DNA of 64,000 nucleotides from an uncultured virus (IMG/VR IMGVR_UViG_3300021376_000011) (lineage: Duplodnaviria > Heunggongvirae > Uroviricota > Caudoviricetes), in the IMG/VR virus record IMGVR_UViG_3300021376_000011, one strand, 5' to 3'. Below are positions 22,396 to 45,503 of this stretch, piece after piece. The notes beneath the pieces were generated by a model. It was not told the DNA's origin. It worked only from the letters and a program-made list of their open reading frames with translations, and made no database searches. The number at the start of each line of letters is the position of its first letter. The stretch's first letter is position 1. The translations under genes were made by a program, and so were the position numbers.

Positions 22396-22425
22396 CCAAC
22401 TTTTTATAATAAATACCTCAGATAC

Positions 22426-22854: not shown

Positions 22855-22951
22855 TTAATAATATCATACTTATGTACTTTATGGTGTATTTAAAATATAC
22901 AAAATAAACTTAATAAATCAAAACTTTTTATTTATATTTCAAAAAAAGATT

Positions 22952-23152: not shown

Positions 23153-23884
23153 ACCATTTTTTAATTCAATTAGTTTATAGTAATTGAATTTTGAAATTTC
23201 CGATTTTTCAACTTCTAATTTTACATTAGTAAGTTTACTAACTACAGAATCTTCAGTAGATTCTTTTAATAGTGAATCTAATTTGTTATTAAGTTCTTTT
23301 TTTACAGAGTTCATTTCATTAATCAATTCCTCATCAGTCATTGATACAATCTTATTGAAAGTTTCTTTTTGTTCCTCATTCAAAAAATCACTATACTTAA
23401 TATTAAAATTATTTACCAACACCGCATTCAATAAAGAATGATTTTCTATTTGAACTGAAGGTTTTTCAAAAATTTCTTTTTTCTTTTCTTGAATCAAATG
23501 AAATATTAAGTTTTCTCTAGCGTCAATCTTAGATGCGATATTGTGCATATTGGTTTCCTCCGAAAGAATATCCAAATCGTTATAAAGTAAATTTGATTCC
23601 GCTACAACGCCTTTGATTGATTTATCAAACTCTTTTATTTCTTTTTTCAAAGATTTAGTTTTTTCTACTAAAATAGGTTCAATAGATTCCACATATAATT
23701 TGGCTTTATCTTTTGATGAAATGTTCAAGTTTTCAATATTTTCATAAAACATATACATTTCAGATAAAGATTTATTTGATTTTAGTTTATTTACTAAATC
23801 TTTAATTTCACCTTTATTATTAGAGGCGTAAGATTCGGTAAGTTTTGTTAATAGTTTTATTTTTAATTTACCAAAGTTTGTCAT
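23144..23884 (-). CDS. Hypothetical head-module protein
   Basis: 246-aa helical ORF immediately downstream of the portal gene. Confidence 0.6.
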   Translation of the reverse strand: MTNFGKLKIKLLTKLTESYASNNKGEIKDLVNKLKSNKSLSEMYMFYENIENLNISSKDKAKLYVESIEPILVEKTKSLKKEIKEFDKSIKGVVAESNLLYNDLDILSEETNMHNIASKIDARENLIFHLIQEKKKEIFEKPSVQIENHSLLNAVLVNNFNIKYSDFLNEEQKETFNKIVSMTDEELINEMNSVKKELNNKLDSLLKESTEDSVVSKLTNVKLEVEKSEISKFNYYKLIELKNGLI

Positions 23885-23889
23885 TTTTG

Positions 23890-25704
23890 TTATTCGTTTA
23901 AGAAGTTTTTAAGTTTATTTTCTATTTCATAAATATTATCTTGAGCTTTATTCATATCAAACAAATCTTCTAATTTGTCATTTTCGTTCAACATACTCAA
24001 TATATTGTGTTTTTTTGTTTCGTTCTCACTCAAAGGAGCGTCTCCACCCCCCGCTGGTGGCGGTGGTGGTGGGGTACCTCCGCCCGTACCCATATTCATA
24101 CCGCCAGCATCGCCGCCAGCCGCATCTCCACCTTCTTGTCTTTCCTCTTCGGGAACCCCATATTTTGAATCAACATCATCAAATACACCACTTCGTTTGA
24201 TAACGTTTTGTGTGTTAGTTAATTCGAAACCAATTGCTCTTTCAATTCTTTGTTGTTGTAAATCAAGAATCACTTCACTGTCACTCATACCAAGAATATT
24301 TTTCTTAGCCCAAGTATGTGAAACAGGTAGGATTCCAATTTGAGATTGGTCAGATGTTGCATCTTTATACAATACAATTTTTTCTTTCCATTGTTCAATT
24401 CTCAACAAATCAGATTGTGCTGACGGGTTTGTTAATGATAATGTGAAATTATCTAATTCATCTTCCAAACCCAATAAGTAAAGATGAATTAATGCTATTT
24501 TATTTAATTCTTGAATTACCGATTTTTGAATTCTGTTGATTGTTCTTGCAAAACGAATATCCATCAACGCGAGAGTTTTACCGTCACCAACAACTTCTTC
24601 AAAACCTAAGAAAGCTTTTGGAATACGAAGTGCCGCCAACATTTTCTTTTGGATATATTCAATGTCGGCAATTTCACCTAAGTTTTGTGCCCCTGCTAAT
24701 GTTTCAATAGGATTTGTTTGAGCTGGGTCACGAACAGGGATGAAATAATCTTGGTCAACCGCCATTTGATTATATCTCATATCAACTTGACCGTTTCTTG
24801 AATCAACCACTTGGTCTCTTTTAAATTTATTAGCCACACGTTGTACATAAGCCTCGATGTCTTTGTCATCCATGTTACCAACAAATATTTTAAAAACCCT
24901 TCTTTCAGGTGCTCTTGTTGTTCTATAAATCAACATAGCATCCTCTGCTAAAAGTAATTGTTTCCAAATTCTTCTAATTTTATCCAACATAGAGGTACCA
25001 TAAGGAAGTTTTCTATCATCACCCAATAATCTAAAATGGGCTATTTCCCAAGCTTGAAATTCTAAATCTTTATTTTTCCATTGAAATCTTAACTCTCTTG
25101 TTGGAAGTTGCATTGAGTTTTGTTGATTTGGTGTTTTGCTTTCTTTACCTTCATGTCTTTCAATTTCAATATTAGGTAATTGTTGACACCCAATAATACC
25201 TCTTTCAGGGTCTATTTTAAGGTAAACAAAGTTATCGCCGTACTTACAAGTACCCCTTGTCCACATTTGTAAGTTAGTGTTCAAATCTAACCTATTCATA
25301 AACAAATCATCAAGAATAATTTTGACTCTTGATGATTCTGAAAAAATAGTTAATATTTCACCTTTTTCAGATAATGTTGTTGATTCTTCGGCGTATATAT
25401 CTAAAGCGGCAGAAATTTCAGGAGTAAATTCCATCGATTCATAATCGTAATATGCTGACAACCTATTTGGTTCGTAATATACCGATTGATTATAAAGAGA
25501 TTGGTCAAGTTTTGTCCACTTGTCTGCAATGTATTGACTCTGCTGAGCTTGTAGCATCGATTTTTCATACTCCTCCCTACTATTTGTTTTTAGTATTTGT
25601 TCTTTATCAAAATTGAAAGACGGAGCCTCCTCAGGAGTTACCCTACCAGGGAACCCAAACATTTTTGTTAATCTCTGAAATACCGTTAAATTACTTTCCG
25701 CCAT
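23890..25704 (-). CDS. Portal protein (T4 gp20-like)
   Basis: PEISAALD, LLAEDAMLIYRTTRAPERRVF, DYFIPVR, IETLAGAQNLGEIADIEY. Confidence 0.95.
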   Translation of the reverse strand: MAESNLTVFQRLTKMFGFPGRVTPEEAPSFNFDKEQILKTNSREEYEKSMLQAQQSQYIADKWTKLDQSLYNQSVYYEPNRLSAYYDYESMEFTPEISAALDIYAEESTTLSEKGEILTIFSESSRVKIILDDLFMNRLDLNTNLQMWTRGTCKYGDNFVYLKIDPERGIIGCQQLPNIEIERHEGKESKTPNQQNSMQLPTRELRFQWKNKDLEFQAWEIAHFRLLGDDRKLPYGTSMLDKIRRIWKQLLLAEDAMLIYRTTRAPERRVFKIFVGNMDDKDIEAYVQRVANKFKRDQVVDSRNGQVDMRYNQMAVDQDYFIPVRDPAQTNPIETLAGAQNLGEIADIEYIQKKMLAALRIPKAFLGFEEVVGDGKTLALMDIRFARTINRIQKSVIQELNKIALIHLYLLGLEDELDNFTLSLTNPSAQSDLLRIEQWKEKIVLYKDATSDQSQIGILPVSHTWAKKNILGMSDSEVILDLQQQRIERAIGFELTNTQNVIKRSGVFDDVDSKYGVPEEERQEGGDAAGGDAGGMNMGTGGGTPPPPPPAGGGDAPLSENETKKHNILSMLNENDKLEDLFDMNKAQDNIYEIENKLKNFLNE

Positions 25705-32562: not shown

Positions 32563-34581
32563 ATGTCAGTAGATTTTTTCGAAGAAGGAAACACAACCAA
32601 CCCAAAGAAAACAAGAAAGGGTTCAACCACCCCTATCCTTGATAACTTTTCAAGGGATTTAAACAAAATGGTAGAAGAGGGTAAAATTGACCCAATAATT
32701 GGGAGAGATGGTGAGGTTAAAAGAATTGCACAGATATTATCTAGAAAAAAGAAAAACAACGTAGTGATAATTGGTGACGCGGGTGTGGGTAAATCGGCTT
32801 TAGTTGAGAAACTCGCTCAGATGATTGTAAAAGGAGATTGTCCATCAAATCTTTTAGACAAACGAGTTGTATCATTAGATTTAACATCTTTGGTGGCTGG
32901 TACAAAATACAGAGGTCAGTTTGAAGAACGTATTAAAGCAGTTCTAAACGAAATACAGAATGAACCTAATGTAATTGTGTTTATTGATGAAATACACACA
33001 ATGGTTGGTGCTGGCAACGCTAGCGGGTCAATGGACGCCGCTAATATTATGAAACCCGCATTAGCTCGAGGAGAAATTCAATGTATTGGGGCGACAACAT
33101 TTGATGAATTTAAAAAACACATCGAGAAAGATGGTGCATTAGTTAGAAGATTTCAAAAAATAATTTTGAAAGAACCAAGTAAGGAAGAAACAGTTCAAAT
33201 TTTAAAAAATTTAAAAGATTCATATCAAAATTTTCACAAAGTATTTTATGAACCGGAGGTTTTTGAAACTATCGTGAATTTGTCATCAAGATTTATCACA
33301 GACCGTCAGTTTCCCGATAAAGCAATTGACGTGATGGATGAATTGGGTTCAGAAAAAAAAATAAATACCAAAATTCCTGAGATTATTGAAAAACTAAAAA
33401 AGGAATCTGATGATTTAAAAAATAGGAAGATAGAAGTTGTAAAAAGTCAAAACTATGAACAAGCGGCTAAATTAAGAGATGAAGAAAGAAAATTACTGAG
33501 TAAATTAAATGATGAAAAAAAGAAGTGGTTAGACAAACAAAAAGACAATAAAACACCCGTAACGGTTGCAGATGTATATGAAATGATTTCACAAATTACA
33601 GGTGTACCTCTCTCTAAGATTGATGATACAGAGACCGCAAATCTTTTGAACTTAGAAGAAAAATTAAAATCTAAAGTAATTGGTCAAGACGAGGCTATTT
33701 CAATAATTTCCAAATCAATTAGAAGAAATAGGGTTGGTATTAAAGATACAAATAAACCAATAGGTTCTTTTATATTTTTAGGTTCAACTGGTGTTGGTAA
33801 AACATATCTCGCAAAATCGATTGCTGAACTACTTTTCGGAGACTCCGAAAAAGTAATTCGTGTTGATATGAGTGAATACATGGAAAAACACAACGTGGCA
33901 AAATTAATTGGTTCACCTCCAGGTTATGTTGGTTATGATGAAGGAGGCCAACTTACTGAGAAGATTAAAAATAATCCATTTTCTGTGGTATTGTTCGATG
34001 AGGTTGAAAAAGCACACAAAGACGTTTTCAATATCTTACTTCAAATTTTGGATGAAGGACATTTAACCGATTCGTTTGGAAGAAAAGTAAACTTTACAAA
34101 CACTATAGTAATCATGACATCCAATATTGGTGCAAAAAAAGTATCTGAATTTGGTAAGGGTGTTGGTTTTAGTTCATCATCTTCAGAATCACAAAACTTT
34201 GAGGTTAAAAAATCAATCGTTCAAAAATCATTAAAACAACACTTTAACCCTGAGTTTTTGAATCGAGTAGACGACATAATCAGTTTTAATTCGTTAGATA
34301 AAGATGTAATTAAAAAGATTATTGAAATTGAATTAAATAAGTTGTCTGTTAGATTAAAAGAAAAAAATTATAAAGTTTCTTTTGATAAGACAATTGTGGA
34401 GAGAATATCGGAACTTAATATTCAAGAAGATTTTGGTGCAAGACCAGTTAAAAGAATCATCCAAAATATGTGTGAAGATTATTTAAGTGATTCAATCTTA
34501 AAAGGCGAAATTAAGGAGAATGATTCCATTAATTTAAAATTTAAAGACGGTGAAATAAAAATTTTTAAAAAAAGGGTGTAA
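32563..34581 (+). CDS. Clp/Hsp100 ATPase (ClpC-like, no N-terminal Clp repeat)
   Basis: Two AAA+ modules (GDAGVGKS...FIDEIH; GSTGVGKT...LFDEVEKAH), UVR-like YEQAAKLRD, GSPPGYVGY. Confidence 0.93.
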   Translation: MSVDFFEEGNTTNPKKTRKGSTTPILDNFSRDLNKMVEEGKIDPIIGRDGEVKRIAQILSRKKKNNVVIIGDAGVGKSALVEKLAQMIVKGDCPSNLLDKRVVSLDLTSLVAGTKYRGQFEERIKAVLNEIQNEPNVIVFIDEIHTMVGAGNASGSMDAANIMKPALARGEIQCIGATTFDEFKKHIEKDGALVRRFQKIILKEPSKEETVQILKNLKDSYQNFHKVFYEPEVFETIVNLSSRFITDRQFPDKAIDVMDELGSEKKINTKIPEIIEKLKKESDDLKNRKIEVVKSQNYEQAAKLRDEERKLLSKLNDEKKKWLDKQKDNKTPVTVADVYEMISQITGVPLSKIDDTETANLLNLEEKLKSKVIGQDEAISIISKSIRRNRVGIKDTNKPIGSFIFLGSTGVGKTYLAKSIAELLFGDSEKVIRVDMSEYMEKHNVAKLIGSPPGYVGYDEGGQLTEKIKNNPFSVVLFDEVEKAHKDVFNILLQILDEGHLTDSFGRKVNFTNTIVIMTSNIGAKKVSEFGKGVGFSSSSSESQNFEVKKSIVQKSLKQHFNPEFLNRVDDIISFNSLDKDVIKKIIEIELNKLSVRLKEKNYKVSFDKTIVERISELNIQEDFGARPVKRIIQNMCEDYLSDSILKGEIKENDSINLKFKDGEIKIFKKRV

Positions 34582-34617
34582 ATATTCATACTTTTTAAAA
34601 AAACATATATATTTATA

Positions 34618-34722
34618 TTCACACAGGATATCTTTGCCGATTTCCTTTCGTTTTATAGTCTGTGGTGTTGAAACCACAAAATGACCACAAACCCCCGACT
34701 CTCTGTTGGGGGTTTTTATTTT
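34618..34722 (+). ncRNA. Candidate small RNA (promoter-to-terminator unit without an ORF)
   Basis: TATTTATA at 34610-34617, hairpin TGTGGT/ACCACA, terminator ACCCCCGAC/GTTGGGGGT plus U-tract at 34691-34725. Confidence 0.5.
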
Positions 34723-34746
34723 TTTGGTATTCTAAAAATTATTATT

Positions 34747-34754
34747 TATATTTG
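34747..34754 (+). promoter_or_regulatory. Bacteroidota-type -7 promoter element TAnnTTTG
   Basis: TATATTTG 18 nt upstream of the ATG at 34773; same element at 37934, 40213 and 44102. Confidence 0.6.
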
Positions 34755-34772
34755 CGATAAATCTATTTTACC

Positions 34773-35186
34773 ATGGAATATACAAAAGATTTGATATTAG
34801 TTAGGGGTTTACCCGGCTCGGGTAAATCCACTTTAGGTGAGGTCATTCTTTATACCCCAAATAATCCAATGAAACCATTGTCGGCGGATGATTTCTTTAC
34901 AGACAAGGAAGGTAACTACAATTTTGACCCAATAAAATTAAGGGAAGCTCATAACGACTGCCAACAAAGGTGTGCAAATTTGATGATGAATAGCGTCGTA
35001 AGAGTTGTTGTGTCAAATACGTTTACCCAAGAATGGGAAATGGAACCATATTTTGAAATGGCGAAAAGATACGGATATCGAATTCACACTATTGTTGTTG
35101 AAAACAGACACGGTGGTGAAAATGTCCACGGAGTACCCTCTGACAAATTAGAGATTATGAAAAATCGTTTTGAAGTAAAACTCTGA
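34773..35186 (+). CDS. P-loop kinase (AAA_33/polynucleotide-kinase-like)
   Basis: LVRGLPGSGKST, SADDFF, AHNDCQ, VVVSNTF, HGVP. Confidence 0.85.
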   Translation: MEYTKDLILVRGLPGSGKSTLGEVILYTPNNPMKPLSADDFFTDKEGNYNFDPIKLREAHNDCQQRCANLMMNSVVRVVVSNTFTQEWEMEPYFEMAKRYGYRIHTIVVENRHGGENVHGVPSDKLEIMKNRFEVKL

Positions 35187-36265
35187 TAGTTAGGTTACAA
35201 AAATACCATGAGGATGGTTTGTTAATAAAACAAACTCACCCCACAAAAGATTTGTGCATATGGAATTATACCCCAAGAGTACAATACGAATCTTTGTGGG
35301 ACGATATTACTATGCAATGTCGTGGACTCGTTACCAATTCAAAAGGCGATGTAATTGCAGAACCGTTTGGTAAGTTCTTTAACTATGAGGAAGTTATTGA
35401 TAAGGACTTAATTCCATGGGACAGTGAATATGTTCACATTCAAGATAAAATGGATGGTTCTCTTGGTATTCTATTCTTTTACGATGGGGAATGGATTATG
35501 TCAACAAGAGGTTCATTTACTTCTGAACAGTCTATCCGTGGTTTTGAAATTTTAAAATCAAAATACAATTTAAATAATTTTGTAAAAGAGGTTACATACC
35601 TATGTGAAATTATTTATCCTGAGAATAGAATTGTTGTAAATTATAATTGTGAAAAAATCACATTCCTTTCTGTAACAACCCCTGAAGGTGAATTGAACTG
35701 GTACACCGCATGTGCAATTTTTAATTCATCAGGTATTTTGGAAGAAGACGTTGTTGGAAGCACAATGGTAACTTTCAATAAAGAAACATTTGACACATAT
35801 AAGAAACTTAATACATCAAACAGTGAAGGTTTTGTTGTAAGATTTTACCCATCAAATTTTAGAATGAAAATTAAATTTGAGGAGTATGTTCGATTACATA
35901 AAATTTTAACCAATGTGTCAAGTAGAGATATTTGGGAATACCTTAAAGAAGATAAATCATTTGATGAGTTACTTGAAAAAGTACCTGATGAGTTTAACAG
36001 TTGGGTGAAAGAAACTGTTAAAGATTTTGTGGTTCGTTATGAAAATATTGAGAAGGAATATCAATGGATATTCAATAAAATACGAAACACTTATTTTGAG
36101 GCACATCAAAAAGAATGTAACCGACGCGAGTTTGCTGAATTAGCAAAAAGATATAACCACCCATCAATATTATTTAATATGTTGGACGGTAAAGAATATA
36201 AAAGTATAATATGGAAAATATTATACCCACCATATACAAAACCATTTAAAAAAGATGAAATATAA
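35183..36265 (+). CDS. RNA ligase (T4 Rnl1 family)
   Basis: QCRGLV, FGKFFN, DKMDGSLG, TRGSF, EIIYPENRIV, EGFV, KIKF; frame is open back to CTG at 35183. Confidence 0.9.
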   Translation: MIVRLQKYHEDGLLIKQTHPTKDLCIWNYTPRVQYESLWDDITMQCRGLVTNSKGDVIAEPFGKFFNYEEVIDKDLIPWDSEYVHIQDKMDGSLGILFFYDGEWIMSTRGSFTSEQSIRGFEILKSKYNLNNFVKEVTYLCEIIYPENRIVVNYNCEKITFLSVTTPEGELNWYTACAIFNSSGILEEDVVGSTMVTFNKETFDTYKKLNTSNSEGFVVRFYPSNFRMKIKFEEYVRLHKILTNVSSRDIWEYLKEDKSFDELLEKVPDEFNSWVKETVKDFVVRYENIEKEYQWIFNKIRNTYFEAHQKECNRREFAELAKRYNHPSILFNMLDGKEYKSIIWKILYPPYTKPFKKDEI

Positions 36266-36665
36266 AATTTACTTAGATGATGTAAGAACCCCCGTTGATA
36301 AATAAAATTGGGTAGTGGTTCGTTCCTATGATGAATTGGTTCAAAAGATAACCGAGATTGGTTTAGATAATGTTGAGTTGATTTCTTTAGACCACGACTT
36401 GGGTGATAGCGCAATGAAAGAATGGTTACACGGTGTAGTTAAAAACTACGAAATCAACTACGACAATATCACCGAGAAAACAAGTATGGACTGTACCAAA
36501 TGGTTAGTTAATCAGTGGTTGGATGGAAAACCTGTTGTTGATGTGGTTGTACATTCAGCCAACGCGGTTGGGAGTGCTAATATGATGGGGTACATCAATA
36601 ATTATAGACATATCCACAGATTACCCCAAAACTGTGTGAGAGTTCAGTGGGACCATACGGTTTAA
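36255..36665 (+). pseudogene. Cyclic-phosphate-processing receiver domain gene with an in-frame TAA at codon 17
   Basis: ATG 36255 reads MKYKIYLDDVRTPVDK*NWVVVRSYDE...ISLDHDLG...VHSANAVG; stop at 36303-36305. Confidence 0.75.
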
Positions 36666-36748
36666 ACTTTTTTTAAACAATTTATTCATTTATTTGTATA
36701 GGTCGATTTTTTTGGTCAAATTTGTGATGAACCAAAAATTAAATCGAC

Positions 36749-37093
36749 ATGCCACCAAAACTACCTAAAAAACCAAACGATACCGTAATCAAAAAGTTAA
36801 TACTCCAACAGGACTATAATAGCTTTGGTGATTTTTACAATGTTAACAAAGAACTAATTTATCTGACGTTAGTCAACCTCTTTAAAAGTCTTAAAAGAAA
36901 AGATAAAAACAATGTAATTTTAGTGTTAGGCGCTAAGATAAATGGTTTACAATGGGAAACTGAGTTAAAATTTAAAAGAAAAGAATCAATTGTTTTAGTA
37001 AGGGATATTCTACCATTCTTTGAAGGTAACGAAGATTATGAAACTTGTGCTGAAATAACCGATACGTACAATAAAATACTTCAGATTCAATAA
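36749..37093 (+). CDS. Hypothetical protein
   Basis: 114-aa ORF ending in UVR-like EDYETCAEI. Confidence 0.55.
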   Translation: MPPKLPKKPNDTVIKKLILQQDYNSFGDFYNVNKELIYLTLVNLFKSLKRKDKNNVILVLGAKINGLQWETELKFKRKESIVLVRDILPFFEGNEDYETCAEITDTYNKILQIQ

Positions 37094-37147
37094 TAAGATG
37101 ATGATTGATTGATATCACCTAAACGGGTTATATCACTCCGTAATCAC

Positions 37148-37402
37148 TTACTCAGATACTGAGTCGTCTGATTTCTTTTTATGTGAGAACTTGTCTACAG
37201 TATCTGCACCCATTCCAATTGCAGTAATAACCATAACTGCGTTTACTAATTCTTCAGATGGTTTAATGTCACCATGAGAAAAAGAATTTACAGCCATGGT
37301 ACCACAAAGGAATAATGCGCCTAATAGAGCAATTACCGGTTTGATTGAAGTTGACCCTCTTTCATCTTTGAATAGGTCAATAATCCATTTTTTAAAGTTC
37401 AT
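37148..37402 (-). CDS. Small two-TM membrane protein (holin-like)
   Basis: Two hydrophobic segments, charged C-terminus, late motif at 37440. Confidence 0.55.
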   Translation of the reverse strand: MNFKKWIIDLFKDERGSTSIKPVIALLGALFLCGTMAVNSFSHGDIKPSEELVNAVMVITAIGMGADTVDKFSHKKKSDDSVSE

Positions 37403-37537
37403 AGTTGTAATTTAGTTTAGTTTTATTTATTTGGTTTACTATAAATACCTCGGCAATGAAGATTGTTATATATATTTTTTTAAACATTTTGAAATATGAA
37501 ATTTACTTGTTATAATTTATAATAAAAGTTAACAGAT

Positions 37538-37623
37538 GAATAAGAAGCGAAGTTGGTCGATTACATCTGACTTGAAATTAGGTGTACTACAAAGTATCGT
37601 AGGTTCAAATTTTACTCTCTCCG
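37538..37623 (+). pseudogene. Degenerate tRNA-Ser(TGA)
   Basis: Anticodon arm TCTGA-CTTGAAA-TTAGG, long variable arm, T-arm GTAGG-TTCAAAT-TTTAC and 3' TCTCTCCG; the 5' acceptor strand no longer pairs. Confidence 0.6.
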
Positions 37624-37678
37624 ACACAGATGAAAGAGTGGTTCGATTTCCTATAGGGATACAACTAAAAAAGACAAT

Positions 37679-37921
37679 ATGTTAGAAAAAATTTTAGAAC
37701 AATATGCAGATGAGGAAATTTTAATAGCGGATGGATTTGATTCCGCGGTATTAGGAATTGATGAAAACTCTATGAGATTGATTTACTCGGTTGAAAAGTG
37801 TTTAAAGATTCTCATGGACCAAGGTATGGACATGACTGAAGCGGTTGAATATTTTGATTTTAACGTGTCAGGTTCATACATGGGAGAGAAGACACCAATA
37901 TGGTGTGATGATTTATTTTAA
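37679..37921 (+). CDS. Conserved small phage hypothetical protein
   Basis: ADGFDSAVLG...IYS...EAVEYFDFNVSGSYMGEKTP. Confidence 0.7.
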   Translation: MLEKILEQYADEEILIADGFDSAVLGIDENSMRLIYSVEKCLKILMDQGMDMTEAVEYFDFNVSGSYMGEKTPIWCDDLF

Positions 37922-37958
37922 AAAAACTTTTTGTATATTTGTATATACTTATTAAACA

Positions 37959-38060
37959 ATGATGAACTTGGTACACATACAACAAACGTCAAACAACCCG
38001 CTAAGTGGTAATGGGAGAGGTTTGTATTTAAGTAACCCAAGTTCGGATTTTAAGTTGTAA
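37959..38060 (+). CDS. Putative leader peptide (33 aa)
   Basis: MMNLVHIQQTSNNPLSGNGRGLYLSNPSSDFKL*, between the TAnnTTTG promoter at 37934 and a terminator. Confidence 0.5.
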   Translation: MMNLVHIQQTSNNPLSGNGRGLYLSNPSSDFKL

Positions 38061-38090
38061 GTTATACTGAGAGTAAACTCTAACTAATTG

Positions 38091-38130
38091 AACCCGAACT
38101 TTTATTTTTGAAGTTCGGGTTTTTTATTTT
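38091..38130 (+). terminator. Intrinsic terminator/attenuator upstream of the tRNA cluster
   Basis: AACCCGAACTT/AAGTTCGGGTT stem followed by TTTTATTTT. Confidence 0.85.
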
Positions 38131-38206
38131 AAGTCTTTTTTTTGTATAATTGTACAATAGTTCAGATTGAACTGAATTTGTTCTTTGACATGTTGGTGAA
38201 ATTGAT

Positions 38207-38292
38207 GCCGCTGTGTTGAAACAGGTAGACAAGAGAGACTTAAAATTTCTTGGACAGTAATGTCCGTGCCGGTTCGATTCCGGCCAGCGGTA
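38207..38292 (+). tRNA. tRNA-Leu(TAA)
   Basis: GCCGCTG/CAGCGGT acceptor, AGAGA-CTTAAAA-TTTCT anticodon arm, long variable arm, GGTTCGATTCC. Confidence 0.92.
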
Positions 38293-38356
38293 CAAAAATG
38301 GAAAACTCCTCAAATCTACAACTACGGTTATCGTAGAAGGAAATTTCCATTTTAAT

Positions 38357-38428
38357 GGGCCCATAGGTAAAGGGATATACCCTCTCACTTCTAATGAGAT
38401 ATTCCAAGTTCGAATCTTGGTGGGCCTA
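38357..38428 (+). tRNA. tRNA-Arg(TCT)
   Basis: GGGCCCA/TGGGCCT acceptor, TCTCA-CTTCTAA-TGAGA anticodon arm, CCAAG-TTCGAAT-CTTGG T-arm. Confidence 0.92.
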
Positions 38429-38590
38429 CGAATTTAAATGATGTCTCTTTCTATGACAATTTGAACATAAAAGAACACATTTATTAAGTTCATTTTTGAT
38501 TGATTCATCAGACTTCAATCTGAGTTTTGACCAATCAACATCTTTTTCAGAAGGATTTAAATGGTGAAAATCAAAAATGACATATGAACG
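38426..38590 (-). pseudogene. HNH endonuclease C-terminal remnant
   Basis: FDFHHLNPSEK...ELNKCVLLCSNCHRKRH; the first CxxC and the N-terminus are absent. Confidence 0.65.
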
Positions 38591-38755
38591 ATTGAACTTT
38601 TGTTCGTACAGATTGTGGTAATTGGACATGTCATATGAATCCCTCGGGACATAAAAAGGTGGCAAATGCTGTTATCACACAGATGAAATTCAAAGTAAAA
38701 AACTAATATCGCCGATTTAAACGATAATTCATTTTATCGGTTATTTCGACGATAC

Positions 38756-38829
38756 GGTCCCTTAGCTCAGTTGGTCAGAGCACCCGACTCATAATCGGTA
38801 GGTCCACGGTTCAAGCCCGTGAGGGACCA
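38756..38829 (+). tRNA. tRNA with CAT anticodon, probably tRNA-Ile2 (lysidine type)
   Basis: GGTCCCT/AGGGACC acceptor, CCGA-CTCATAA-TCGG anticodon arm; resembles ileX-type tRNAs and lacks initiator features. Confidence 0.85.
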
Positions 38830-38855
38830 CGAGATATTTATATAATAAAAAAATC

Positions 38856-39308
38856 ATGGGAATTGAATTAAAAAAGAAAAAACAACTTATCGAAAGATTA
38901 AACAAAAGACTCCTATCCGAAGCGGAAATGGAATGTCCTAAAGCAACTCAAGATTTAGAGTTAAATACCAATAATAGAGACAAGTCAATAAAAGCGGATT
39001 ATATAAAATATGGTCCACTTAATATTGACGAACCCGGTGATTATTGGGAAATGGTTGCATCTGATTGGAACACCACTGTTGAAGCTGCTAAAAAATCACT
39101 ATGTGGTAATTGTGTAGCATTTGATATATCACCAAGAATGGATGAGTGTATGCCAGGTTCGGTTTCTGATGATAGTGGTAGATTAGGGTACTGTTGGATG
39201 CATCACTTTAAATGTCACTCCGCAAGAACATGTAAAACATGGGCAAAAGGTGGTCCAATTACCGAAGATACGGTGTCCTATGAGTGGCAACAAAAAAATC
39301 AAAAATAA
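38856..39308 (+). CDS. Cys-rich hypothetical late protein
   Basis: LLSEA site, CGNCVAF, GYCWMHHFKCHSARTC; late motif at 38835. Confidence 0.65.
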   Translation: MGIELKKKKQLIERLNKRLLSEAEMECPKATQDLELNTNNRDKSIKADYIKYGPLNIDEPGDYWEMVASDWNTTVEAAKKSLCGNCVAFDISPRMDECMPGSVSDDSGRLGYCWMHHFKCHSARTCKTWAKGGPITEDTVSYEWQQKNQK

Positions 39309-39377
39309 TATCAACATGTGGTCGTACCCTTAACTCCAAAACCTATTAAGGAAATCGTTATGGGAAGACCACTCCAA

Positions 39378-39452
39378 GCGGGAGTAGCTCAGTGGTAGAG
39401 CATCGCCTTGCCAAGGCGAGGGCCGTGGGTTCAAATCCCATTTCCCGCTCCA
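39378..39452 (+). tRNA. tRNA-Gly(GCC), CCA encoded
   Basis: GCGGGAG/TTCCCGC acceptor, CGCC-TTGCCAA-GGCG anticodon arm, GGTTCAAATCC, TCCA end. Confidence 0.95.
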
Positions 39453-39697
39453 AGTAGACCTTAAAAAGGGCCCTTCCGTTGCGTACGAAAACGGCTTGTT
39501 GGGCCCGGGTCTACCTTTTAAGCGAATATCGTATAACCGACATTATCGGTTATATTAAAGACTACTTGGTAGTTATGTGTAATAATTTTCACCAACCCAC
39601 ATCAACCCCACAAAATTACTACACATAACAAGGTGTTACAGTCGCAAGGGTTCGAGCCCCTCACCTTCCGCGGAGTACTTATATATTATAAAATGGT

Positions 39698-40159
39698 ATG
39701 AAAAAATTTAGAACATTGCACGGAACACTCATAACCGACGTTATAGGTTACATCAAAGATTATTTGGTGGATAAAAACGATATTGAAATATTGATTGGTT
39801 CGGATTCACAATCATTTAGTAATTCTAAAACAGTTTACGGGGTGGTTATTGCTCTTTACACAAAAGGTAAGGGTGCTCACGTATTGTGTACTAAAGACAC
39901 AATACCATTTGAAAAAGATACGTCAAGTAGACTAATGACTGAAGTGTGGAAGGCGGTTGAAGTTGCTGAACACTTGAGAAACAATGGTTTACCAAAAGTC
40001 ACTTGGATTGATATTGACCTTAATCCTGACCCAAAATACAAATCAAATAAGGTTTTAAGACAAGCCGTTGGTTTGGTTGAGGGTATGGGGTATAAAGTGA
40101 GATACAAACACGCGGGGGCTATGATGACCTACAGCGCGAATCATTTGGTGAGGATTTAA
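39698..40159 (+). CDS. RNase H-like YkuK (DUF458) family protein
   Basis: ILIGSDSQ, GKGAHV, RLMTEV, IDIDLN, SANH. Confidence 0.8.
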   Translation: MKKFRTLHGTLITDVIGYIKDYLVDKNDIEILIGSDSQSFSNSKTVYGVVIALYTKGKGAHVLCTKDTIPFEKDTSSRLMTEVWKAVEVAEHLRNNGLPKVTWIDIDLNPDPKYKSNKVLRQAVGLVEGMGYKVRYKHAGAMMTYSANHLVRI

Positions 40160-40256
40160 AAATTTTTTTTAATTTTTTTTAAAAAAAACTTTGTTTTTAC
40201 AAAAAGTTTATATATCTTTGTACCATTACAATAAATTACAACATTAATACGACATT

Positions 40257-42329
40257 ATGACAACAAGGAATTTAGTTGCGTTTCAAAAAGGTTTGGTCTG
40301 TTCACCAAACGACGGTCAAGATAATAGAATCGCGGTAGCAACCGTTCAATCCCACTTAATGCAATGGGGTTACATGTTAGACGAAGATGCTTTCTTCGCG
40401 TTGTCCAAATCAGAATTATCGTTTATTCAAAACTTCAATCATGAAGTATTGAATCATTTGAAAAATGTAATGGGTGGTAATCGTAATTACCAACCCCTAT
40501 ATAAGAATTTCCCACAAGAAGTGATGGTTATGTCCGACTTCGAATTATACATGAACGCAATCTTGCATTATTGGAGTAATGGTCAATGGGAACCATCAAC
40601 CCACACTTACGAAAAAGAAATCAAGTTTGAAAAAATTAAATACAACTTGATTAAGTATGGTACCTCTGATAGATTCTCAAAAATTTTCACTGACTTAGTG
40701 TCAATCAACACATCATTAACCCCCCAAGACCTTGAGATTGTTAAGTGGTTTGTATCAAGTGGTGAAACATTGATTTTCCCTGACACAATTCCTTTCAAAG
40801 AGAATTTGTGTACACTTGCGGGAATGGGAATCGAGGGACTTCCAGTAAAGACTTCAACCGACGTGTTAAGAATAGCCGTTCATCTTTCAGGTGGAGACAT
40901 TAGTTTACCTAAAGTTCCTGAAAAGGAAATTAGACTAAACAGATGGTCTACCGATAAAGGAGTAAATCCCGAAAGAGAAAAGTTTAAATTCAAGAAATTC
41001 ACTCGTAAAGAGAGGAAGTACATCTTGAATTTACTTGAGAACACAAACTGTGACCCAAGAGAAATGGTTTTAAGAGACCAACGATGGGTTCGTTTAGGTG
41101 AAATCTTACACCCGGGTGAGTATAAAAACCAATTCCCTAAATCTTTTGATGCGTTCAACAAGATTAGAAACGAGAAAGTAAAATCTTGGTTCTCCCTTGT
41201 AGATGAGGGATTCAAAAAAAGTTTGGAGAATGGTTTGAGAGTATTGTCTCAAAGACCCGGTGAATTCTCTCGTCGATTAGATTGGTTGGTTCGTACATAT
41301 CCACAAGATATTGAAACAATTATGAAATTATTCGGAGAAGCGGTAAAAGGTACATCAAACAAAGTATTGTTTGAGGTTTACACTCACTTTGAAGGTCGTA
41401 CTGAACCTAAAACAAATAGGTCAGTTATGATTAAAGGAGCGAGAAAACGTACCGAATTACCATCACTACAAGCAATCCCTAAAGAGATTGTGGAAACCAT
41501 CCACTCTAAATTATTCGAAACTCTTAGAGATAAGTTTTCGGTAATGGATTCTTTAGGTAACTGTTGGATTGATGAGGAATTAAAAAAGATTCCTTTACCA
41601 ACCAACATGAGAAGTATGAACTTCTCAACTAAACCTACCATCAGAGGTCAACGAGTTCCGCTCGATAACCCCGATGCAAAAGTTATCAGACCATTTATTC
41701 ATTGGATGGATAAACGTGGTTCTGAAGACTTGGATTTAAGTGTTACGTTTGTTGGTGAAAAAGTGTCAGAAGTACTATCTTTCAGTAACTTGAGAGTTGG
41801 TAACTCTGTTCACTCGGGGGACGTGAGACATAGACAGGGTCCTTGTGCGGAGTACATCGACATCGATATTCAAGATGGATTAAATCGTGGATTCAAGTAC
41901 GCGGTTATTGACGTAAGAAACTTCAATGGCGGTAGTTTAAGTTCACTTGAAACATCCTTTGGTATCATGGAGAGAGAACATCCTGAATCAAACACGACAT
42001 GGTTACCTGAGACAATTTCAAATTGTCAATCATTAGAATCTGAGTCGTCAAACACTTTGATTGCAATTATTGACTTAGAAACCAAAGAGTACATCATGTT
42101 GGACATTGATTCAAGTGGTTTTGTAACCGCGAGGAGCGACTTCAATAACACCTTTAAAGTAATTCAACAATACGCTGAATTACCAAAAGTAAGTGTTTAT
42201 GACCTTATTCTTCTACACGTAGAAGGTCGAGGAAAACAAGTTACCCTTGACGAGAATGTGGATACACATTTCAAGTACGAGGACTTCTGTTACTCTTATG
42301 AAGAGACAGGTAAATTGATGGGTGTCTAA
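40257..42329 (+). CDS. Large protein with C-terminal TerD-like domain (resembles the MXAN_6230/SCO0854-type family but lacks the RING)
   Basis: PLYKNFP, FKENL, TSTDVLR, RPGEFSRRLD, then W...DLDLS...HSGD...AEYIDID. Confidence 0.65.
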   Translation: MTTRNLVAFQKGLVCSPNDGQDNRIAVATVQSHLMQWGYMLDEDAFFALSKSELSFIQNFNHEVLNHLKNVMGGNRNYQPLYKNFPQEVMVMSDFELYMNAILHYWSNGQWEPSTHTYEKEIKFEKIKYNLIKYGTSDRFSKIFTDLVSINTSLTPQDLEIVKWFVSSGETLIFPDTIPFKENLCTLAGMGIEGLPVKTSTDVLRIAVHLSGGDISLPKVPEKEIRLNRWSTDKGVNPEREKFKFKKFTRKERKYILNLLENTNCDPREMVLRDQRWVRLGEILHPGEYKNQFPKSFDAFNKIRNEKVKSWFSLVDEGFKKSLENGLRVLSQRPGEFSRRLDWLVRTYPQDIETIMKLFGEAVKGTSNKVLFEVYTHFEGRTEPKTNRSVMIKGARKRTELPSLQAIPKEIVETIHSKLFETLRDKFSVMDSLGNCWIDEELKKIPLPTNMRSMNFSTKPTIRGQRVPLDNPDAKVIRPFIHWMDKRGSEDLDLSVTFVGEKVSEVLSFSNLRVGNSVHSGDVRHRQGPCAEYIDIDIQDGLNRGFKYAVIDVRNFNGGSLSSLETSFGIMEREHPESNTTWLPETISNCQSLESESSNTLIAIIDLETKEYIMLDIDSSGFVTARSDFNNTFKVIQQYAELPKVSVYDLILLHVEGRGKQVTLDENVDTHFKYEDFCYSYEETGKLMGV

Positions 42330-42357
42330 ACTCACCCATTAGTTCTTTGAAATATTA

Positions 42358-42776
42358 TATGTGGCTATGTGAGCCATTGAGAGGATAGTCAACTGACCAT
42401 CACATCAAACCACGGAGTGGTTCTGTTTTGGTCCTTAGCGGTGACAAAAGTATCAATGCAAACGTCTTACTTCTAACAAACAACTATCAGATACGAAAAC
42501 CAGACACACAATTTCCACATAACTTCTTAGACGGCTATGTATTGGGTTACTTCTGCTAGGGGACTAATGTCCCCCCTTCTATAACAATTATATGTTACAT
42601 TACCCGTACTTTTTCCGTCAATCATATTGAGTGGCTATCTATCAACTTACTTCTAAATTTTAAGCAAAAAATCAAAAATTAGTTGTAGTCTTTCCACTTT
42701 TAAAACACACATGGATATGTGTTCAGTTATTTCTACTTTGACCGATAATCAAAACAATTATTGACACAGTTTCCAT
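42358..42776 (+). ncRNA. Array of four related structured RNAs
   Basis: Each unit reads stem-GG-(C/A)TA-stem-TTA(C/T)TTCT-variable loop-stem-TTT-CC-stem, with compensatory changes; units at 42358-42521, 42530-42619, 42629-42699, 42711-42776. Confidence 0.75.
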
Positions 42777-42817
42777 TTTTTAAAAACAACAAAATAAATA
42801 ACATAAAAACAACAATT

Positions 42818-43264
42818 ATGGCAACAAAAACAACTGACCAGAAAGTAAAAGAACTATTCGATTTAGTTCAAAGTAAAAAATTAGCAATTGAAAAAGCTGA
42901 AAGACCTTGTTGGAAAACCAGCGGTAACTTTGGTTATTCAGCGAATTCCGCACATGACAGGACATCAATTCCAACTATCACAGATGTACGTAAAATCGTA
43001 GAGATGTACGCATTTCTGATGGAAAGAAAAGATAAATCCGAAACCGCAGCCAAAGAACTTGGCGTAAACTACAAATTCACATGGTTAGGATTTACTGTCG
43101 ATGAATGGAAAGATGATTTTCAAACAAGAGTAAATCAAATTTTAATTCAAGAAAAACGTAAAGAACTTTCTGAAATTGAATCTCGTTTGAATTCATTAAT
43201 TTCACCCGAGATAAGAGTACAAATGGAATTGGAAGCAATCACGGAGTTACTTAACGAAAAGTAA
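42818..43264 (+). CDS. Hypothetical coiled-coil protein
   Basis: MATKTTDQKVKEL...; ATG 42818 preferred because the 42761 start lies inside RNA unit 4. Confidence 0.7.
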   Translation: MATKTTDQKVKELFDLVQSKKLAIEKAERPCWKTSGNFGYSANSAHDRTSIPTITDVRKIVEMYAFLMERKDKSETAAKELGVNYKFTWLGFTVDEWKDDFQTRVNQILIQEKRKELSEIESRLNSLISPEIRVQMELEAITELLNEK

Positions 43265-43321
43265 TTTCTTGGTTTTTTAAACCAAGTGGTGGAGTCGAAC
43301 CGAGAAACCGGTCGTCCTAAA

Positions 43322-43352
43322 AAGGGGTTGGGTGACTAACCCCTTCTTTTTT
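43322..43352 (+). terminator. Intrinsic terminator
   Basis: AAGGGGTTGG-GTGA-CTAACCCCTT plus U-tract. Confidence 0.8.
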
Positions 43353-43380
43353 AAACATATTTTTTGATATATTTACAAAT

Positions 43381-44100
43381 ATGAGAATAGTATGTATTTC
43401 TGACACCCACTCTTTACACAATGGTATGTTGTATAACATACCACAGGGAGATATTTTGATACACTCAGGAGATTGCACAAATGTCGGACGACAAAATGAT
43501 GTTCGTGATTTTATTAATTGGTTTCAAAATATACAAGGATTTACCCATAAAATTTTCATTGCAGGTAACCACGATTTTGCGTTTCAAAGAAAACCAACAT
43601 GGTTAAATCTTTACATAGACCCATCAATTCTCACAGAAAATAATGTTACTTATTTGGAAGATGGTGAGTTGGAAATTATTAGTTCAGAATTCTCAAGACC
43701 AATAAAAATTTATGGTTCTCCATGGCAACCTGAATTTTTTGATTGGGCATTTAATTTACCAAGAAACGGTGAGGTGTTAAAAGAAAAATGGGACTCAATC
43801 CCAAATAATACCGATATCTTAATAACACATGGTCCACCACATGGAATTAGAGATTTTACACCCAATAATTTACAGGTCGGATGTGAACTTTTAAGAGAGC
43901 GTGTTGAAGTTTTAAAACCACTTTTACATGTTTTTGGTCACATACATGGTGCATATGGTGTTGCAATGATTGGCGATACAGTATTTGCTAACGCATCAAC
44001 TTGTACAGAAAGGTATCGACCAATAAATAAACCATTAGTTTTTGATTTAATCGAAAATGATGGTATATTTACAATAAATTATATAGACGAAGAAAATTAA
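43381..44100 (+). CDS. Metallophosphoesterase (calcineurin-like)
   Basis: ISDTH, HSGD, AGNHD, THGPP, FGHIH. Confidence 0.92.
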   Translation: MRIVCISDTHSLHNGMLYNIPQGDILIHSGDCTNVGRQNDVRDFINWFQNIQGFTHKIFIAGNHDFAFQRKPTWLNLYIDPSILTENNVTYLEDGELEIISSEFSRPIKIYGSPWQPEFFDWAFNLPRNGEVLKEKWDSIPNNTDILITHGPPHGIRDFTPNNLQVGCELLRERVEVLKPLLHVFGHIHGAYGVAMIGDTVFANASTCTERYRPINKPLVFDLIENDGIFTINYIDEEN

Positions 44101-44127
44101 CTATCTTTGTCTTGTTCTTTGACTTAT

Positions 44128-44703
44128 GGGGGTGTATGGAATTGATTGGCGTTGATATGGTAAATGGGCACGTAGTCGGATGTCATCTACGACTTTAATC
44201 CACGGTGGTAAATTTTAAACGGCAACGTTTATAACCAAATGGAAGTAGCAGGTCTTCTTGCGACTTCTAAAGTTGCAGCCTAATTGGTTGTAACTAACGG
44301 GTCGACGGACAGATAACCTTGGAACAGAAGTCCTTGTAGGGTGTGGTTTCTATCCTAAAAGAAACAAAGTGGAAGATTAGTTCTCAGTAAACCGAACCAC
44401 TTTAAAATAAGGGAATTGTGAATTTCGGAGTATTAGAAAATACTGTCCTAAACGTGTAGTCCATTTATTGTATTGCGAGCAAGACGCGGGTTTTTAATCG
44501 AGCCCCTTCATATCGTGAGATATGTCGAAAATCGGATGAACTCAGGGGAAGTCTTTTAGATAATCCTGAGCCAAGCCTGATAGGAACAGGAAGGTGCAGA
44601 GACTAGTGGGTGATAGACGCTTCTATCGTAATACCACATTAGCGTCCGACATCTCGTTGAGATGATGATATAGTCCAATAATTGTCGAAACCCGCCACCT
44701 CCA
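44128..44703 (+). ncRNA. ssrA: tmRNA, interrupted by a group I intron
   Basis: GGGGGTG/CACCTCC-A acceptor with G3:U70; tag ORF 44221-44283 GNVYNQMEVAGLLATSKVAA*; T-arm GCGGGT|TCGAAACCCGC restored by removing 44492-44684. Confidence 0.9.
44492..44684 (+). mobile_element. Group I intron without an ORF (IC3-like core) in the tmRNA T-loop
   Basis: Core elements AATCCTGAGCCAAG, AAGGTGCAGAGACT and GATATAGTCC; exon ends in U, intron ends in G; IGS GCCC pairs the exon GGGU and intron TCGA can pair the 3' exon TCGA. Confidence 0.88.
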
Positions 44704-44717
44704 CATTAAAGGGAACC

Positions 44718-45239
44718 TCAAAAGGGTTCCCTTTTATTTTTAATTAAAATACTAATTAATTCATGAATATACGCATCATCCATTTCATTTTTCATCCAAT
44801 TAATTGCCCTTGAAACCCATCTAACATTTCCTTTAACATAACCTAATTTATTATCTATCCTATCTAAAGACGCAGAATATATTGGATTCTTTTTTATTTT
44901 GGTATATGATGACAACTCTAATTTTATACCACTGAATGGACAAATTCCATTTTGTAAAACCCATTGATTAGACAAATCTTCAATAGTTAAATCAATAATT
45001 TGATTTCTTTTTTTAATATTTCTAAAATGATATTTGAATTTTGAATATTCCCCACCTCTATTATTTGAGTGTCTTTGTATATCGTATCGATTTTTAACGT
45101 TTAATAAATTTTTAGTATTGTTAATACCAACACAATTTCTTGAACAAAAATTAGGTCTATTTAATTTTTTATTACGATTTAATTCAGAATTTGATTTTTC
45201 AAATTCAATCCCACAGCTTGAACAAATACATTTTCCCAT
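44718..45239 (-). CDS. Free-standing putative homing endonuclease (His-Me/HNH-like) with N-terminal Zn ribbon
   Basis: CSSCG...FCSRNC; QNGICPFSG...ASLDRIDNKLGYVKGNVRWVSRAINWMK. Confidence 0.75.
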   Translation of the reverse strand: MGKCICSSCGIEFEKSNSELNRNKKLNRPNFCSRNCVGINNTKNLLNVKNRYDIQRHSNNRGGEYSKFKYHFRNIKKRNQIIDLTIEDLSNQWVLQNGICPFSGIKLELSSYTKIKKNPIYSASLDRIDNKLGYVKGNVRWVSRAINWMKNEMDDAYIHELISILIKNKREPF

Positions 45240-45304
45240 TTTATTACTTTATTATAAATATGGAGATAATGGGAAAAGTATGGAGGTGTTACTAATTAAA
45301 TAAT

Positions 45305-45329
45305 AAACCCACCAATTGGTGGGTTTTTT
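45305..45329. terminator. Likely bidirectional terminator
   Basis: AAACCCACC-AATT-GGTGGGTTT with A/T tracts on both sides. Confidence 0.75.
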
Positions 45330-45478
45330 GTTTTAAGGACACTTTGTCCTCGATATTGTCTTTGAGAGGTATATAACGAACAAAGAGGTCAATTCAGACC
45401 CCTTTGCCGAGATGTGGAATACCTCCTTTCGTTTTTAGTCTAATTATCATCTCATGGCGACCAAACCATTTGATTCTA
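45305..45478 (-). ncRNA. Candidate structured late small RNA containing GAAAGGAGGUAUUCCA
   Basis: Late motif at 45481-45488 pointing leftwards, terminator at 45305-45329, and a hairpin (45381-45406) with G:U on the minus strand but A:C on the plus strand. Confidence 0.55.
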
Positions 45479-45503
45479 ATTATAAATATCTTGTAATCTT
45501 AAT

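Follow-up and report, generated by a model that had tools for sequence, protein, structure and literature searches.

Two predicted, mutually complementary small RNAs in an uncultured bS21-encoding jumbo phage, one carrying an rpsU-type Shine-Dalgarno element

Within a 64,000-nucleotide stretch of an uncultured virus of the Caudoviricetes (IMG/VR record IMGVR_UViG_3300021376_000011), the whole of which we call the window, we examined two intergenic loci that are each predicted to specify a small structured RNA, RNA A on the plus strand and RNA B on the minus strand. Judging from the sequences, we consider it on balance probable that opposite strands give rise to A and B, that the two RNAs bind each other, and that A would thereby cover the extended Shine-Dalgarno (SD) element of B, either antagonising B or triggering the joint decay of both. 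That both RNAs are produced, that they pair in the cell and what role B plays is what we infer. Two points were absent from an earlier first-pass annotation of this DNA, namely that the SD of B is an rpsU-type complement of 9-14 nt of the 16S rRNA tail and that the phage encodes bS21.

Results

Two collinear loci read in opposite directions

The predicted features of locus A, all on the plus strand, were:

34609-34616, plus: promoter-like motif ATATTTAT before RNA A, nearly invariant in the A family
34621-34722, plus: predicted RNA A, about 100 nt, both ends putative
34632-34640, plus: block 1 of A (CUUUGCCGA), which complements 45402-45410 of B
34641-34654, plus: block 2 of A (UUUCCUUUCGUUUU), partly like the 16S 3' tail, complementary to the 5' half of the extended SD of B
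34656-34661, plus: block 3 of A (UAGUCU), a variable spacer that complements 45436-45441 of B
34662-34677, plus: hairpin GUGGU-GUUGAA-ACCAC of A, partly complementary to helix H1 of B
34689-34725, plus: intrinsic terminator of A with a U-tract, called on the plus strand only

Those of locus B, in the order in which the RNA would be read, were:

45482-45489, minus: promoter-like motif ATATTTAT before RNA B, invariant in 38 of 38 aligned B loci
45303-45478, minus: predicted RNA B, about 175 nt, both ends putative
45449-45474, minus: helix H1, whose loop GGUUUGGUCRCC is invariant; both-side changes in the outer pairs, G.U wobble variation in the inner ones
45436-45441, minus: block 3 of B (AGACUA)
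45416-45430, minus: extended SD of B (GAAAGGAGGUAUUCC), complementary to the 3' tail of Bacteroidota 16S rRNA
45409-45425, minus: helix H2 (GAGGU/AUCUC), containing part of the SD; all 41 sequences have a G.U at one pair
45402-45410, minus: block 1 of B (UCGGCAAAG), at the H2/H3 junction
45379-45408, minus: helix H3 of 9 pairs (97% of cells paired), of which 3 change on both sides; many G.U
45305-45326, called on both strands: bidirectional terminator hairpin that ends B on the minus strand

Compared along the plus strand of the DNA, the loci share CTTTGCCGA (34632-34640 and 45402-45410) and TAGTCT (34656-34661 and 45436-45441), and TTTCCTTTCGTTTT (34641-34654) faces CCTCCTTTCGTTTT (45422-45435) on the same strand. 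Alignment of the two intergenic regions by blastn returned matches of 18/19 and 9/9, both plus/plus. The order is the same on both copies, with block 1 followed by block 2, the spacer (block 3) and a hairpin (GTGGTGTTGAAACCAC in A, ATGGCGACCAAACCAT in B). Between A and B of the window we counted 40 identical positions, five wobble-type transitions and one mismatch-type transition. The H2 loop and GAUAA segment of B have no counterpart in A. The blocks that the first-pass annotation had placed at 34632-34660 and 45402-45440 are indeed shared, and the match extends further.

By this alignment A and B are collinear, diverged copies on one DNA strand, A being a copy of part of the B gene that is read in reverse. 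Because the copies are read in opposite directions their RNAs are complementary, so that the antisense reading and the diverged duplication, which had been offered as its alternative, both hold. A distance of 10.8 kb separates the loci in the window, and one of 8-27 kb in other contigs, so they are not cis-encoded antisense genes sharing one DNA segment.

Inside the window alone the match does not clearly exceed chance, with 3 occurrences of the 11-mer at up to one mismatch (2.95 expected) and 9 of the 9-mer (6.56 expected). The best gapped local match of the 59-nt core of A in the window was locus B, with a score of 34. We regard the match as real because both loci are found again, with their blocks preserved, in contigs of related phages.

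Conservation of both RNAs in related phages

An exact-pattern scan of IMG/VR for the two blocks returned 40 loci, 26 with the 3-nt gap of A and 14 with a gap of 13-14 nt; twelve of the latter were B-like and two (L004, L032) were unrelated. Scans that did not use the shared blocks returned 50 loci for the A hairpin pattern and 115 for the 5' part of B, chance matches included, and nhmmer collected 71 A and 68 B loci with the window counted. All homologues were from uncultivated jumbo phages and comprised 30 distinct A and 41 distinct B sequences. Consensus folds (RNAalifold) and covariance models were derived from alignments A1 (38 distinct B; model R1) and A2 (21 distinct A; model R2). Each RNA was single copy in the window, A scoring 140 bits with R2 (E 4e-31) and B 131 bits with R1 (E 8e-31), with a next best E of at least 0.004 for both.

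The A family fold had 98.7% of 539 cells paired, compared with 35-52% when the partners were slid (30 distinct rows), and the B family fold had 97.6% of 861 cells paired, compared with 45-68% (41 distinct rows). In the model-based alignments nine pairs of A and six pairs of B showed changes on both sides. The fifth pair of the A hairpin co-varies among the 30 sequences (UA in 10, GC in 9, AU in 5, UG in 1, unpaired in 5), and both-side changes were observed in 6 of the 10 terminator pairs of A. Block 1 was kept in all 30 distinct A sequences save for one C/U position and one terminal change, while block 2 formed an unstructured, conserved stretch of the consensus fold.

No Rfam 15 family reached its gathering threshold at A or B in searches extended to E up to 10, the best match at A being rnk_pseudo (27.4 bits, threshold 55) and those at B being terminator-like leaders only (at most 33.8 bits, threshold 55). 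At E up to 1e-3, neither A nor B matched any of the GenBank phages of INPHARED. Two small open reading frames (ORFs), AUG-GUU-UGG in H1 of B and AUG-ACC in A, were considered as coding and rejected, as neither is conserved. With regard to type I and type III toxin-antitoxin systems, neither RNA has a conserved ORF and the alignments contain no tandem repeats.

Among 17 B-bearing records searched, 15 contained a strong A (E <=1.5e-14), one contained a weak A match and one, a 54%-complete contig, contained none, while 3 of 17 A-bearing records in which B had not previously been found contained a strong B. An apparent A without B in three large related contigs (G020, G021, G022) was set aside as uninformative, since these end at the equivalent of about 39.4 kb of the window, before the position of B. 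All three (L247-L249) end within about 1-3 kb of the tRNA region, and a genome end, a repeat or a break in the assembly may account for this shared end.

Strands of the two RNAs

Within the window, 15 of the 21 copies of ATATTTAT are followed within 60 nt by a same-strand ORF of at least 60 aa that begins with ATG, compared with 4 of 21 for the reverse complement; the corresponding counts for TATTTATA were 17 of 23 and 2 of 23. The motif ATATTTAT stands in sense orientation before both A and B, and we infer that it is a phage promoter resembling the host -7 box. Copies of ATATTTAT and TATTTATA stand 4-44 nt before gene starts and are like the host -7 box TAnnTTTG with the G replaced, and their very short spacings to the starts suggest leaderless late mRNAs. 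Orphan copies with no ORF behind them were observed at 32160 (plus), 26492 (plus), 6731 (minus) and 1140 (minus).

Base pairing was asymmetric between the strands. In B, 199 of the 861 paired cells are G.U in the sense of the window minus strand and would be A.C on the opposite strand, and in the terminator of A one pair is G.U in 11 of 30 sequences, becoming C.A if read from the other strand. Three indirect lines of evidence (motif, terminator and G.U asymmetry) thus support the reading of A from the plus strand and of B from the minus strand. The opposite orientation had been proposed by the first-pass annotation, as had TATTTATA at 34610 and a plus-strand terminator; both of these are present, the terminator at 34689-34725. 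The loci were on opposite strands in the window and in 31 of the 31 records holding both.

An rpsU-type SD without a gene in RNA B

In the window the SD of B forms 10 contiguous and 4 further base pairs with GGAACACCUCCUUUCU (-23.3 kcal/mol), and it is the only exact copy of GAAAGGAGGTRTTC in the window. The Bacteroidota 16S rRNA ends in ...GCGGCUGGAACACCUCCUUUCU, with the helix-45 sequence standing before the 16-mer tail in at least 114 of 120 genome loci; an 11-nt tail ACCUCCUUUCU and the corresponding 'perfect SD' AGAAAGGAGGU have been described (Jha et al. 2021, PMC7797042). The best match to the 16S tail was at the same place in all 41 distinct B RNAs, with energies of -13.6 to -23.3 kcal/mol. 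The longest contiguous pairing was 14 nt in 8 of these, 13 in 2, 10 in 20, 9 in 10 and 6 in 1, and 40 of the 41 therefore have the contiguous complementarity of at least 9 nt that we took as rpsU-type.

No AUG, GUG or UUG stands at start-codon distance (7-10 nt) 3' of the SD of B, where the invariant triplet is AUC. The frame of this AUC has no conserved length, running for 6 codons in L133 and 26 in the window before a stop, and the changes in the sequence that follows are compensatory ones within H3.

In the Bacteroidia the anti-SD is hidden by bS21, bS18 and bS6, and rpsU, essentially alone, senses bS21-less ribosomes through a very long SD (PMC7797042, PMC9976891). This extended SD forms up to 13 bp, is practically the sole strong SD in Flavobacterium johnsoniae, and rpsU is preferentially translated by ribosomes lacking bS21 (McNutt et al. 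2023, PMC9976891). We compared B with rpsU leaders from 34 Flavobacteriaceae genomes (4 of 5 from one set and the best 30 of 61), taken as host-type leaders. An extended SD was observed in all 34 (-17.1 to -22.2 kcal/mol), of the type AAAGG(A/G)GG in 20, AGAGGAGG in 13 and AAGGGAGG in 1, and the SD variants of the B family (CG, UG, GGGGG, GGGAGG) parallel those of the leaders. One rpsU leader from a Crocinitomicaceae metagenome-assembled genome had no SD. The AGAGGAGG-type SD pairs with the UUU of 16S through a G.U. Several host rpsU promoters contain TATCTTTGCCGA, whose letters match block 1 of A, probably by coincidence. By these comparisons B resembles an rpsU leader without the gene, and falls outside the rpsU-leader class because a start codon and ORF are missing.

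Predicted pairing of A and B

For the pair in the window, RNAduplex predicted helices of 10, 14 (with two G.U) and 6 bp that leave an 11-nt loop in B, slightly longer than the 9 + 14 + 5 bp of the first pass, together with two further 6-bp helices between the hairpin of A and the first hairpin of B. Cofolding gave a net gain of -15.3 kcal/mol, compared with -6.41 +/- 2.78 (minimum -15.0) for 200 shuffles of the 5' part of A, and the predicted dimer uses blocks 2 and 3 and keeps H3 of B. Whole-RNA duplexfold energies overstate the pairing, as they ignore folding within each RNA. In the predicted folds the A seed is unpaired and blocks 2 and 3 of B are single-stranded between H1 and H2, giving conserved complementarity through an accessible seed. 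A conserved contact between the A hairpin and H1 of B was considered and rejected, being strong in the window clade only (-14.8 to -18.2 kcal/mol, compared with -4 to -11 elsewhere).

Co-variation between A and B

Co-variation was scored over 19 distinct seed pairs. In block 2, the U-run of A and the A-run of B were 3U/3A in nine pairs and 4U/4A in five, with 4U facing AAAG by wobble in one, while 3U/4A or unrescued 4U/3A was never observed. Block 1 was Watson-Crick paired in 13 of the 19 (GCCGA/UCGGC or GUCGA/UCGAC) and contained a U.G wobble in two. The spacers differ across lineages and match within genomes, for example UAGUCU/AGACUA in the window, AUAAGUA/UACUUAU in L215/L145 and CGUUUAAAAU/AUUUUAAACG in L220/L174.

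Cognate seeds had an energy of -26.7 kcal/mol and non-cognate seeds -23.5 (0 of 20000 permutations as low), and the spacers alone gave -3.76 and -2.17 kcal/mol (p = 5e-5), both tests ignoring relatedness. Swapping seeds over 171 genome pairs gave a positive penalty in 136, a negative one in 29 and one near zero in 6. We then picked nine roughly independent genome pairs from a neighbor-joining tree of 400 nt of the ClpB-like gene beside locus A; one of these contrasts was invalid due to a truncated B seed in L171, and the others had swap penalties of +16.6, +15.1, +6.1, +5.8, +0.7, 0, 0 and -8.5. Taken together, these results suggest co-evolution of A and B.

Several observations weigh against the antisense reading. 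The gapped score of 34 between the core of A and locus B is near chance (29.9 +/- 2.2, maximum 36, in 100 dinucleotide shuffles). Among the 19 seed pairs, block 1 has one or two mismatches in four, an extra C in A forces a bulge in block 2 in one, and A CCUCUCG faces B CGAAAGG with an uncompensated mid-block C.A in three. In L070/L237 and L080/L236, with two block-1 mismatches, cognate energies are worse than non-cognate ones. The signal from the independent contrasts is weak, and block 1 of B lies inside H2/H3 and is unused by the cofold. Gene conversion between the DNA copies could mimic co-evolution; fixed A/B differences directly beside the co-varying stretches argue against frequent conversion. 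Four metatranscriptomes contained contigs of relatives (90-99% alike, strandless) in which A and B had a depth of 0-2.8, while the tmRNA (transfer-messenger RNA) and the gene at 40.2-42.4 kb were strongly covered, and 24 riverine runs contained 6-12% of the words of 34500-44400. As the coverage of A and B is low and strandless, it neither supports nor refutes their expression.

The compensatory changes proposed by the first-pass annotation as a check were accordingly mixed, with matching indels, C/G versus U/A exchanges and spacers on one side, and uncompensated mismatches and five positive against one negative contrasts on the other. Its antisense or sponge pair is partly supported, by the indirect signs of opposite strands and by a conserved complementarity that co-varies in part.

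Genomic setting

Neighboring features of the two loci, and the bS21 gene, were:

22952-23152, plus: gene for phage bS21 (66 aa, Tyr54 retained); its leader is A-rich, lacks an SD and follows a TATTTATA motif
32563-34581, plus: ClpB-like ATPase gene, upstream neighbor of locus A
34773-39452: RNA-repair cluster directly 3' of RNA A
44718-45239, minus: HNH endonuclease gene, neighbor of locus B
45504-46466, minus: ORF of unknown function, the other neighbor of locus B

The window has a GC content of 32% and belongs to a clade of uncultivated jumbo phages whose IMG/VR contigs reach 334 kb. A bS21 gene (PF01165) was observed in 5 of 5 related records tested; in G001, a record of the same clade, PF01165 scored 43.7 bits and the 3,159 nt around the gene (L243) are 100% identical to window 21461-24619. 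In this the window agrees with the phages of Bacteroidota that Chen et al. 2022 (PMC9723584) described as encoding bS21. The RNA-repair cluster encodes a PNK-like kinase (AAA_33), an Rnl1-like RNA ligase and a cREC_REC cyclic-phosphate receiver domain, and is closed by tRNA-Leu, tRNA-Arg, tRNA-Met and tRNA-Gly.

Locus B is convergent with a phage tmRNA gene (44128-44704, plus) in which a group I intron interrupts the T-loop. By Rfam the intron (44482-44694) scored 68.8 bits and the tmRNA 35.4 bits, under the gathering score of 47; the 3' exon CGAAACCCGCCACCTCCAC is at 44686-44704, and the HNH gene adjoins on the opposite strand. An intron-less homologue was found in L017/L023 (ARAGORN; tag GNVYNNMEIAGILASSKVAVA), where a homologous terminator hairpin sits between the tmRNA 3' end and B, and metatranscriptome contigs that continue at 44492 into a T-loop and acceptor end represent an intron-less or spliced form. 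The ORF at 40257-42329 (plus; phrog_33734) was by far the best-covered stretch in four riverine metatranscriptomes, with a summed depth of up to about 600, and is probably a major structural gene.

Discussion

Proposed mechanism

The reading that we hold to be probable on balance is that A is a trans-encoded antisense RNA to B, derived from a backwards-read partial copy of it. The unstructured 5' half of A would pair through blocks 2 and 3 with the single-stranded A-run of B and the 5' half of its SD-like element, and block 1 would be added if H2 and H3 of B open. The part of the SD so covered would be CGAAAGGA in most lineages and, with two G.U, the whole AAAGGAGG in the window. The SD-like element of B, which has no ORF, could pair with 9-14 nt of the host 16S tail in the way an rpsU leader does. 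A would occupy the very nucleotides to which the 16S tail would bind. Most likely, therefore, B is masked or titrated by A, or both RNAs are marked for decay by forming the duplex, and A would set the timing and amount of the engagement of B with ribosomes.

A further and bolder proposal, which we think unlikely, is that B is a decoy for bS21-free 30S subunits, undercutting the autoregulation of host bS21 and favouring the SD-less bS21 of the phage. As an ORF-less mimic of the rpsU leader, B would capture the freed 16S 3' tail with its extended SD and place the non-start AUC at the start-codon site, outcompeting host rpsU mRNA, while the SD-less, late-expressed phage bS21 would fill the ribosomes. 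A, in part a 16S-tail mimic, would antagonise or time B, and host rpsU may be a further, direct target of A. If true, A and B would be an RNA-level copy of the SD:anti-SD switch and a viral takeover of ribosome composition.

Other explanations

The target of A may instead be host rpsU mRNA, with the 16S-tail mimic occluding the rpsU SD and so switching off host bS21 as the SD-less bS21 of the phage is produced, and with B as a sponge that buffers A or as an RNA acting on ribosomes independently. The phage gene for bS21 with its SD-less leader would fit this, as would the exact complementarity of block 2 of A, UCCUUUCGUU(U), to AACGAAAGGA in the CG|AAAGG-type rpsU leaders (4 of 34), the L394 leader reaching -23.6 kcal/mol with the window A seed. 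The A variant CCUCUCG, which mismatches its own B in 3 of 19 pairs, exactly complements the AGAGG-type rpsU SD of 13 of the 34 leaders and improves the energies with those leaders (for example, -19.3 compared with -16.7 kcal/mol for L370, and -21.7 compared with -19.1 for L376). However, rpsU can pair with block 2 only, whereas blocks 1 and 3 and the hairpin of A complement B only, and block 1 is nearly invariant. The complement of block 1 is absent from rpsU mRNAs, with 2-3 mismatches in 32 of 34 (UCGGCAAAG) or 25 of 34 (variant UCGACAAAG), and 29 of the 34 leaders have AG or UG rather than CG before the A-run. A pairing of block 1 with the rpsU coding region (FDKT codons) was also tried and rejected, with 2-3 mismatches in most of the 34. 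We consider this a rival to be taken seriously, but host rpsU an improbable main target.

It is rather less credible that the complementarity is a relic of an old partial duplication, with two RNAs that may act separately and have no need to pair. The collinearity of the loci on one DNA strand is as expected from such a relic, as are the uncompensated mismatches and the weak test over independent pairs, and the blocks of B are also constrained by its own helices. Against this, the seed of A is nearly invariant though unstructured, while the flanking ClpB-like proteins have diverged at their C-terminus to 57-67% identity between clades. The spacers and U/A-run lengths match within genomes and differ between lineages, and independent drift predicts no cognate advantage, yet cognate seeds outperformed non-cognate ones.

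We find it very unlikely that A is the 3' untranslated region and terminator of the ClpB-like mRNA, or the leader of the downstream gene. The ClpB-like gene precedes A in 19 of 19 loci tested, and in 17 of these A begins 25-50 nt past the stop codon with no terminator between (about 0.9 kb separates them in the other two, L210/L211). A conserved promoter-like motif stands between the stop codon and A, however, the downstream gene varies among phages (a PNK-like or a lipoprotein-like ORF) and has its own TAnnTTTG box, and the plus-strand sequence of A complements B all the same. We give almost no credence to the shared blocks being DNA-level sites, either protein-binding or a host-type -7 box (TAnnTTTG): a TA before block 1 does give TATCTTTG in the window, and host rpsU promoters do read TATCTTTGCCGA, but the -7 box was rejected, since the TA varies across the A family (AA, CA, TC and GT are seen), and both loci show RNA-type covariation, G.U asymmetry and terminators.

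Comparison with known systems

A and B represent two structured RNA families absent from Rfam 15, and very few small RNAs are known from phages of Bacteroidota. A would also be an example of an antisense regulator that arose when part of its target was copied and the copy came to be read in reverse. Prophage anti-sRNAs and sponges include AgvB, which acts on GcvB, and AsxR, which acts on FnrS (both from prophages of enterohaemorrhagic Escherichia coli), and further sponges are SroC and 3'ETS-leuZ. As in these, the main predicted partner of A is a small RNA, and A is trans-encoded with its own terminator and a conserved single-stranded seed. Unlike sponges of the AgvB/GcvB type, A and B are both phage-encoded and related by duplication, their complementarity is in several blocks and longer (about 30-45 bp), and the host phylum is Bacteroidota.

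IstR-1/tisB and OhsC/shoB are trans-encoded antisense RNAs with long target matches beside type I toxin genes. A and B are like these in that regulator and target are separate genes with engineered-looking complementarity of at least about 20 nt, and unlike them in having no toxin ORF and in lying 8-27 kb apart rather than adjacent. In ColE1 RNA I/RNA II and CopA/CopT the antisense RNA is cis-encoded and recognition is hairpin to hairpin; the complementary hairpins of A and B (the A hairpin and H1) could likewise nucleate pairing, but they come from separate DNA segments and their loop complementarity is partial and conserved in the window clade only.

B is closest in its SD to the autoregulatory rpsU leaders of Flavobacteriales (PMC7797042, PMC9976891), having 9-14 contiguous nt complementary to the 16S tail, and its variants CGAAAGGAGG, UGAAAGGAGG, AAAGGGGG and GGGAGG also occur in host rpsU leaders. 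Unlike these leaders, B is phage-encoded, is a conserved RNA of three helices with a dedicated antisense partner, and has no start codon or conserved ORF. The existing 30S, toeprint and rpsU'-gfp assays of F. johnsoniae suit A and B and offer a cheap experimental handle.

The phage itself is like the bS21-encoding Bacteroidota jumbo phages of Chen et al. 2022 (PMC9723584), with 32% GC, contigs of up to 334 kb, bS21 beside structural genes, and tRNAs. The main text of that paper nowhere uses the words tmRNA, small RNA, non-coding or promoter, and the reason for bS21 in large freshwater phages is treated there as an open question (PMC9723584). A conserved RNA with an orphan rpsU-type SD and a dedicated complementary RNA would give such phages a testable link to the biology of bS21.

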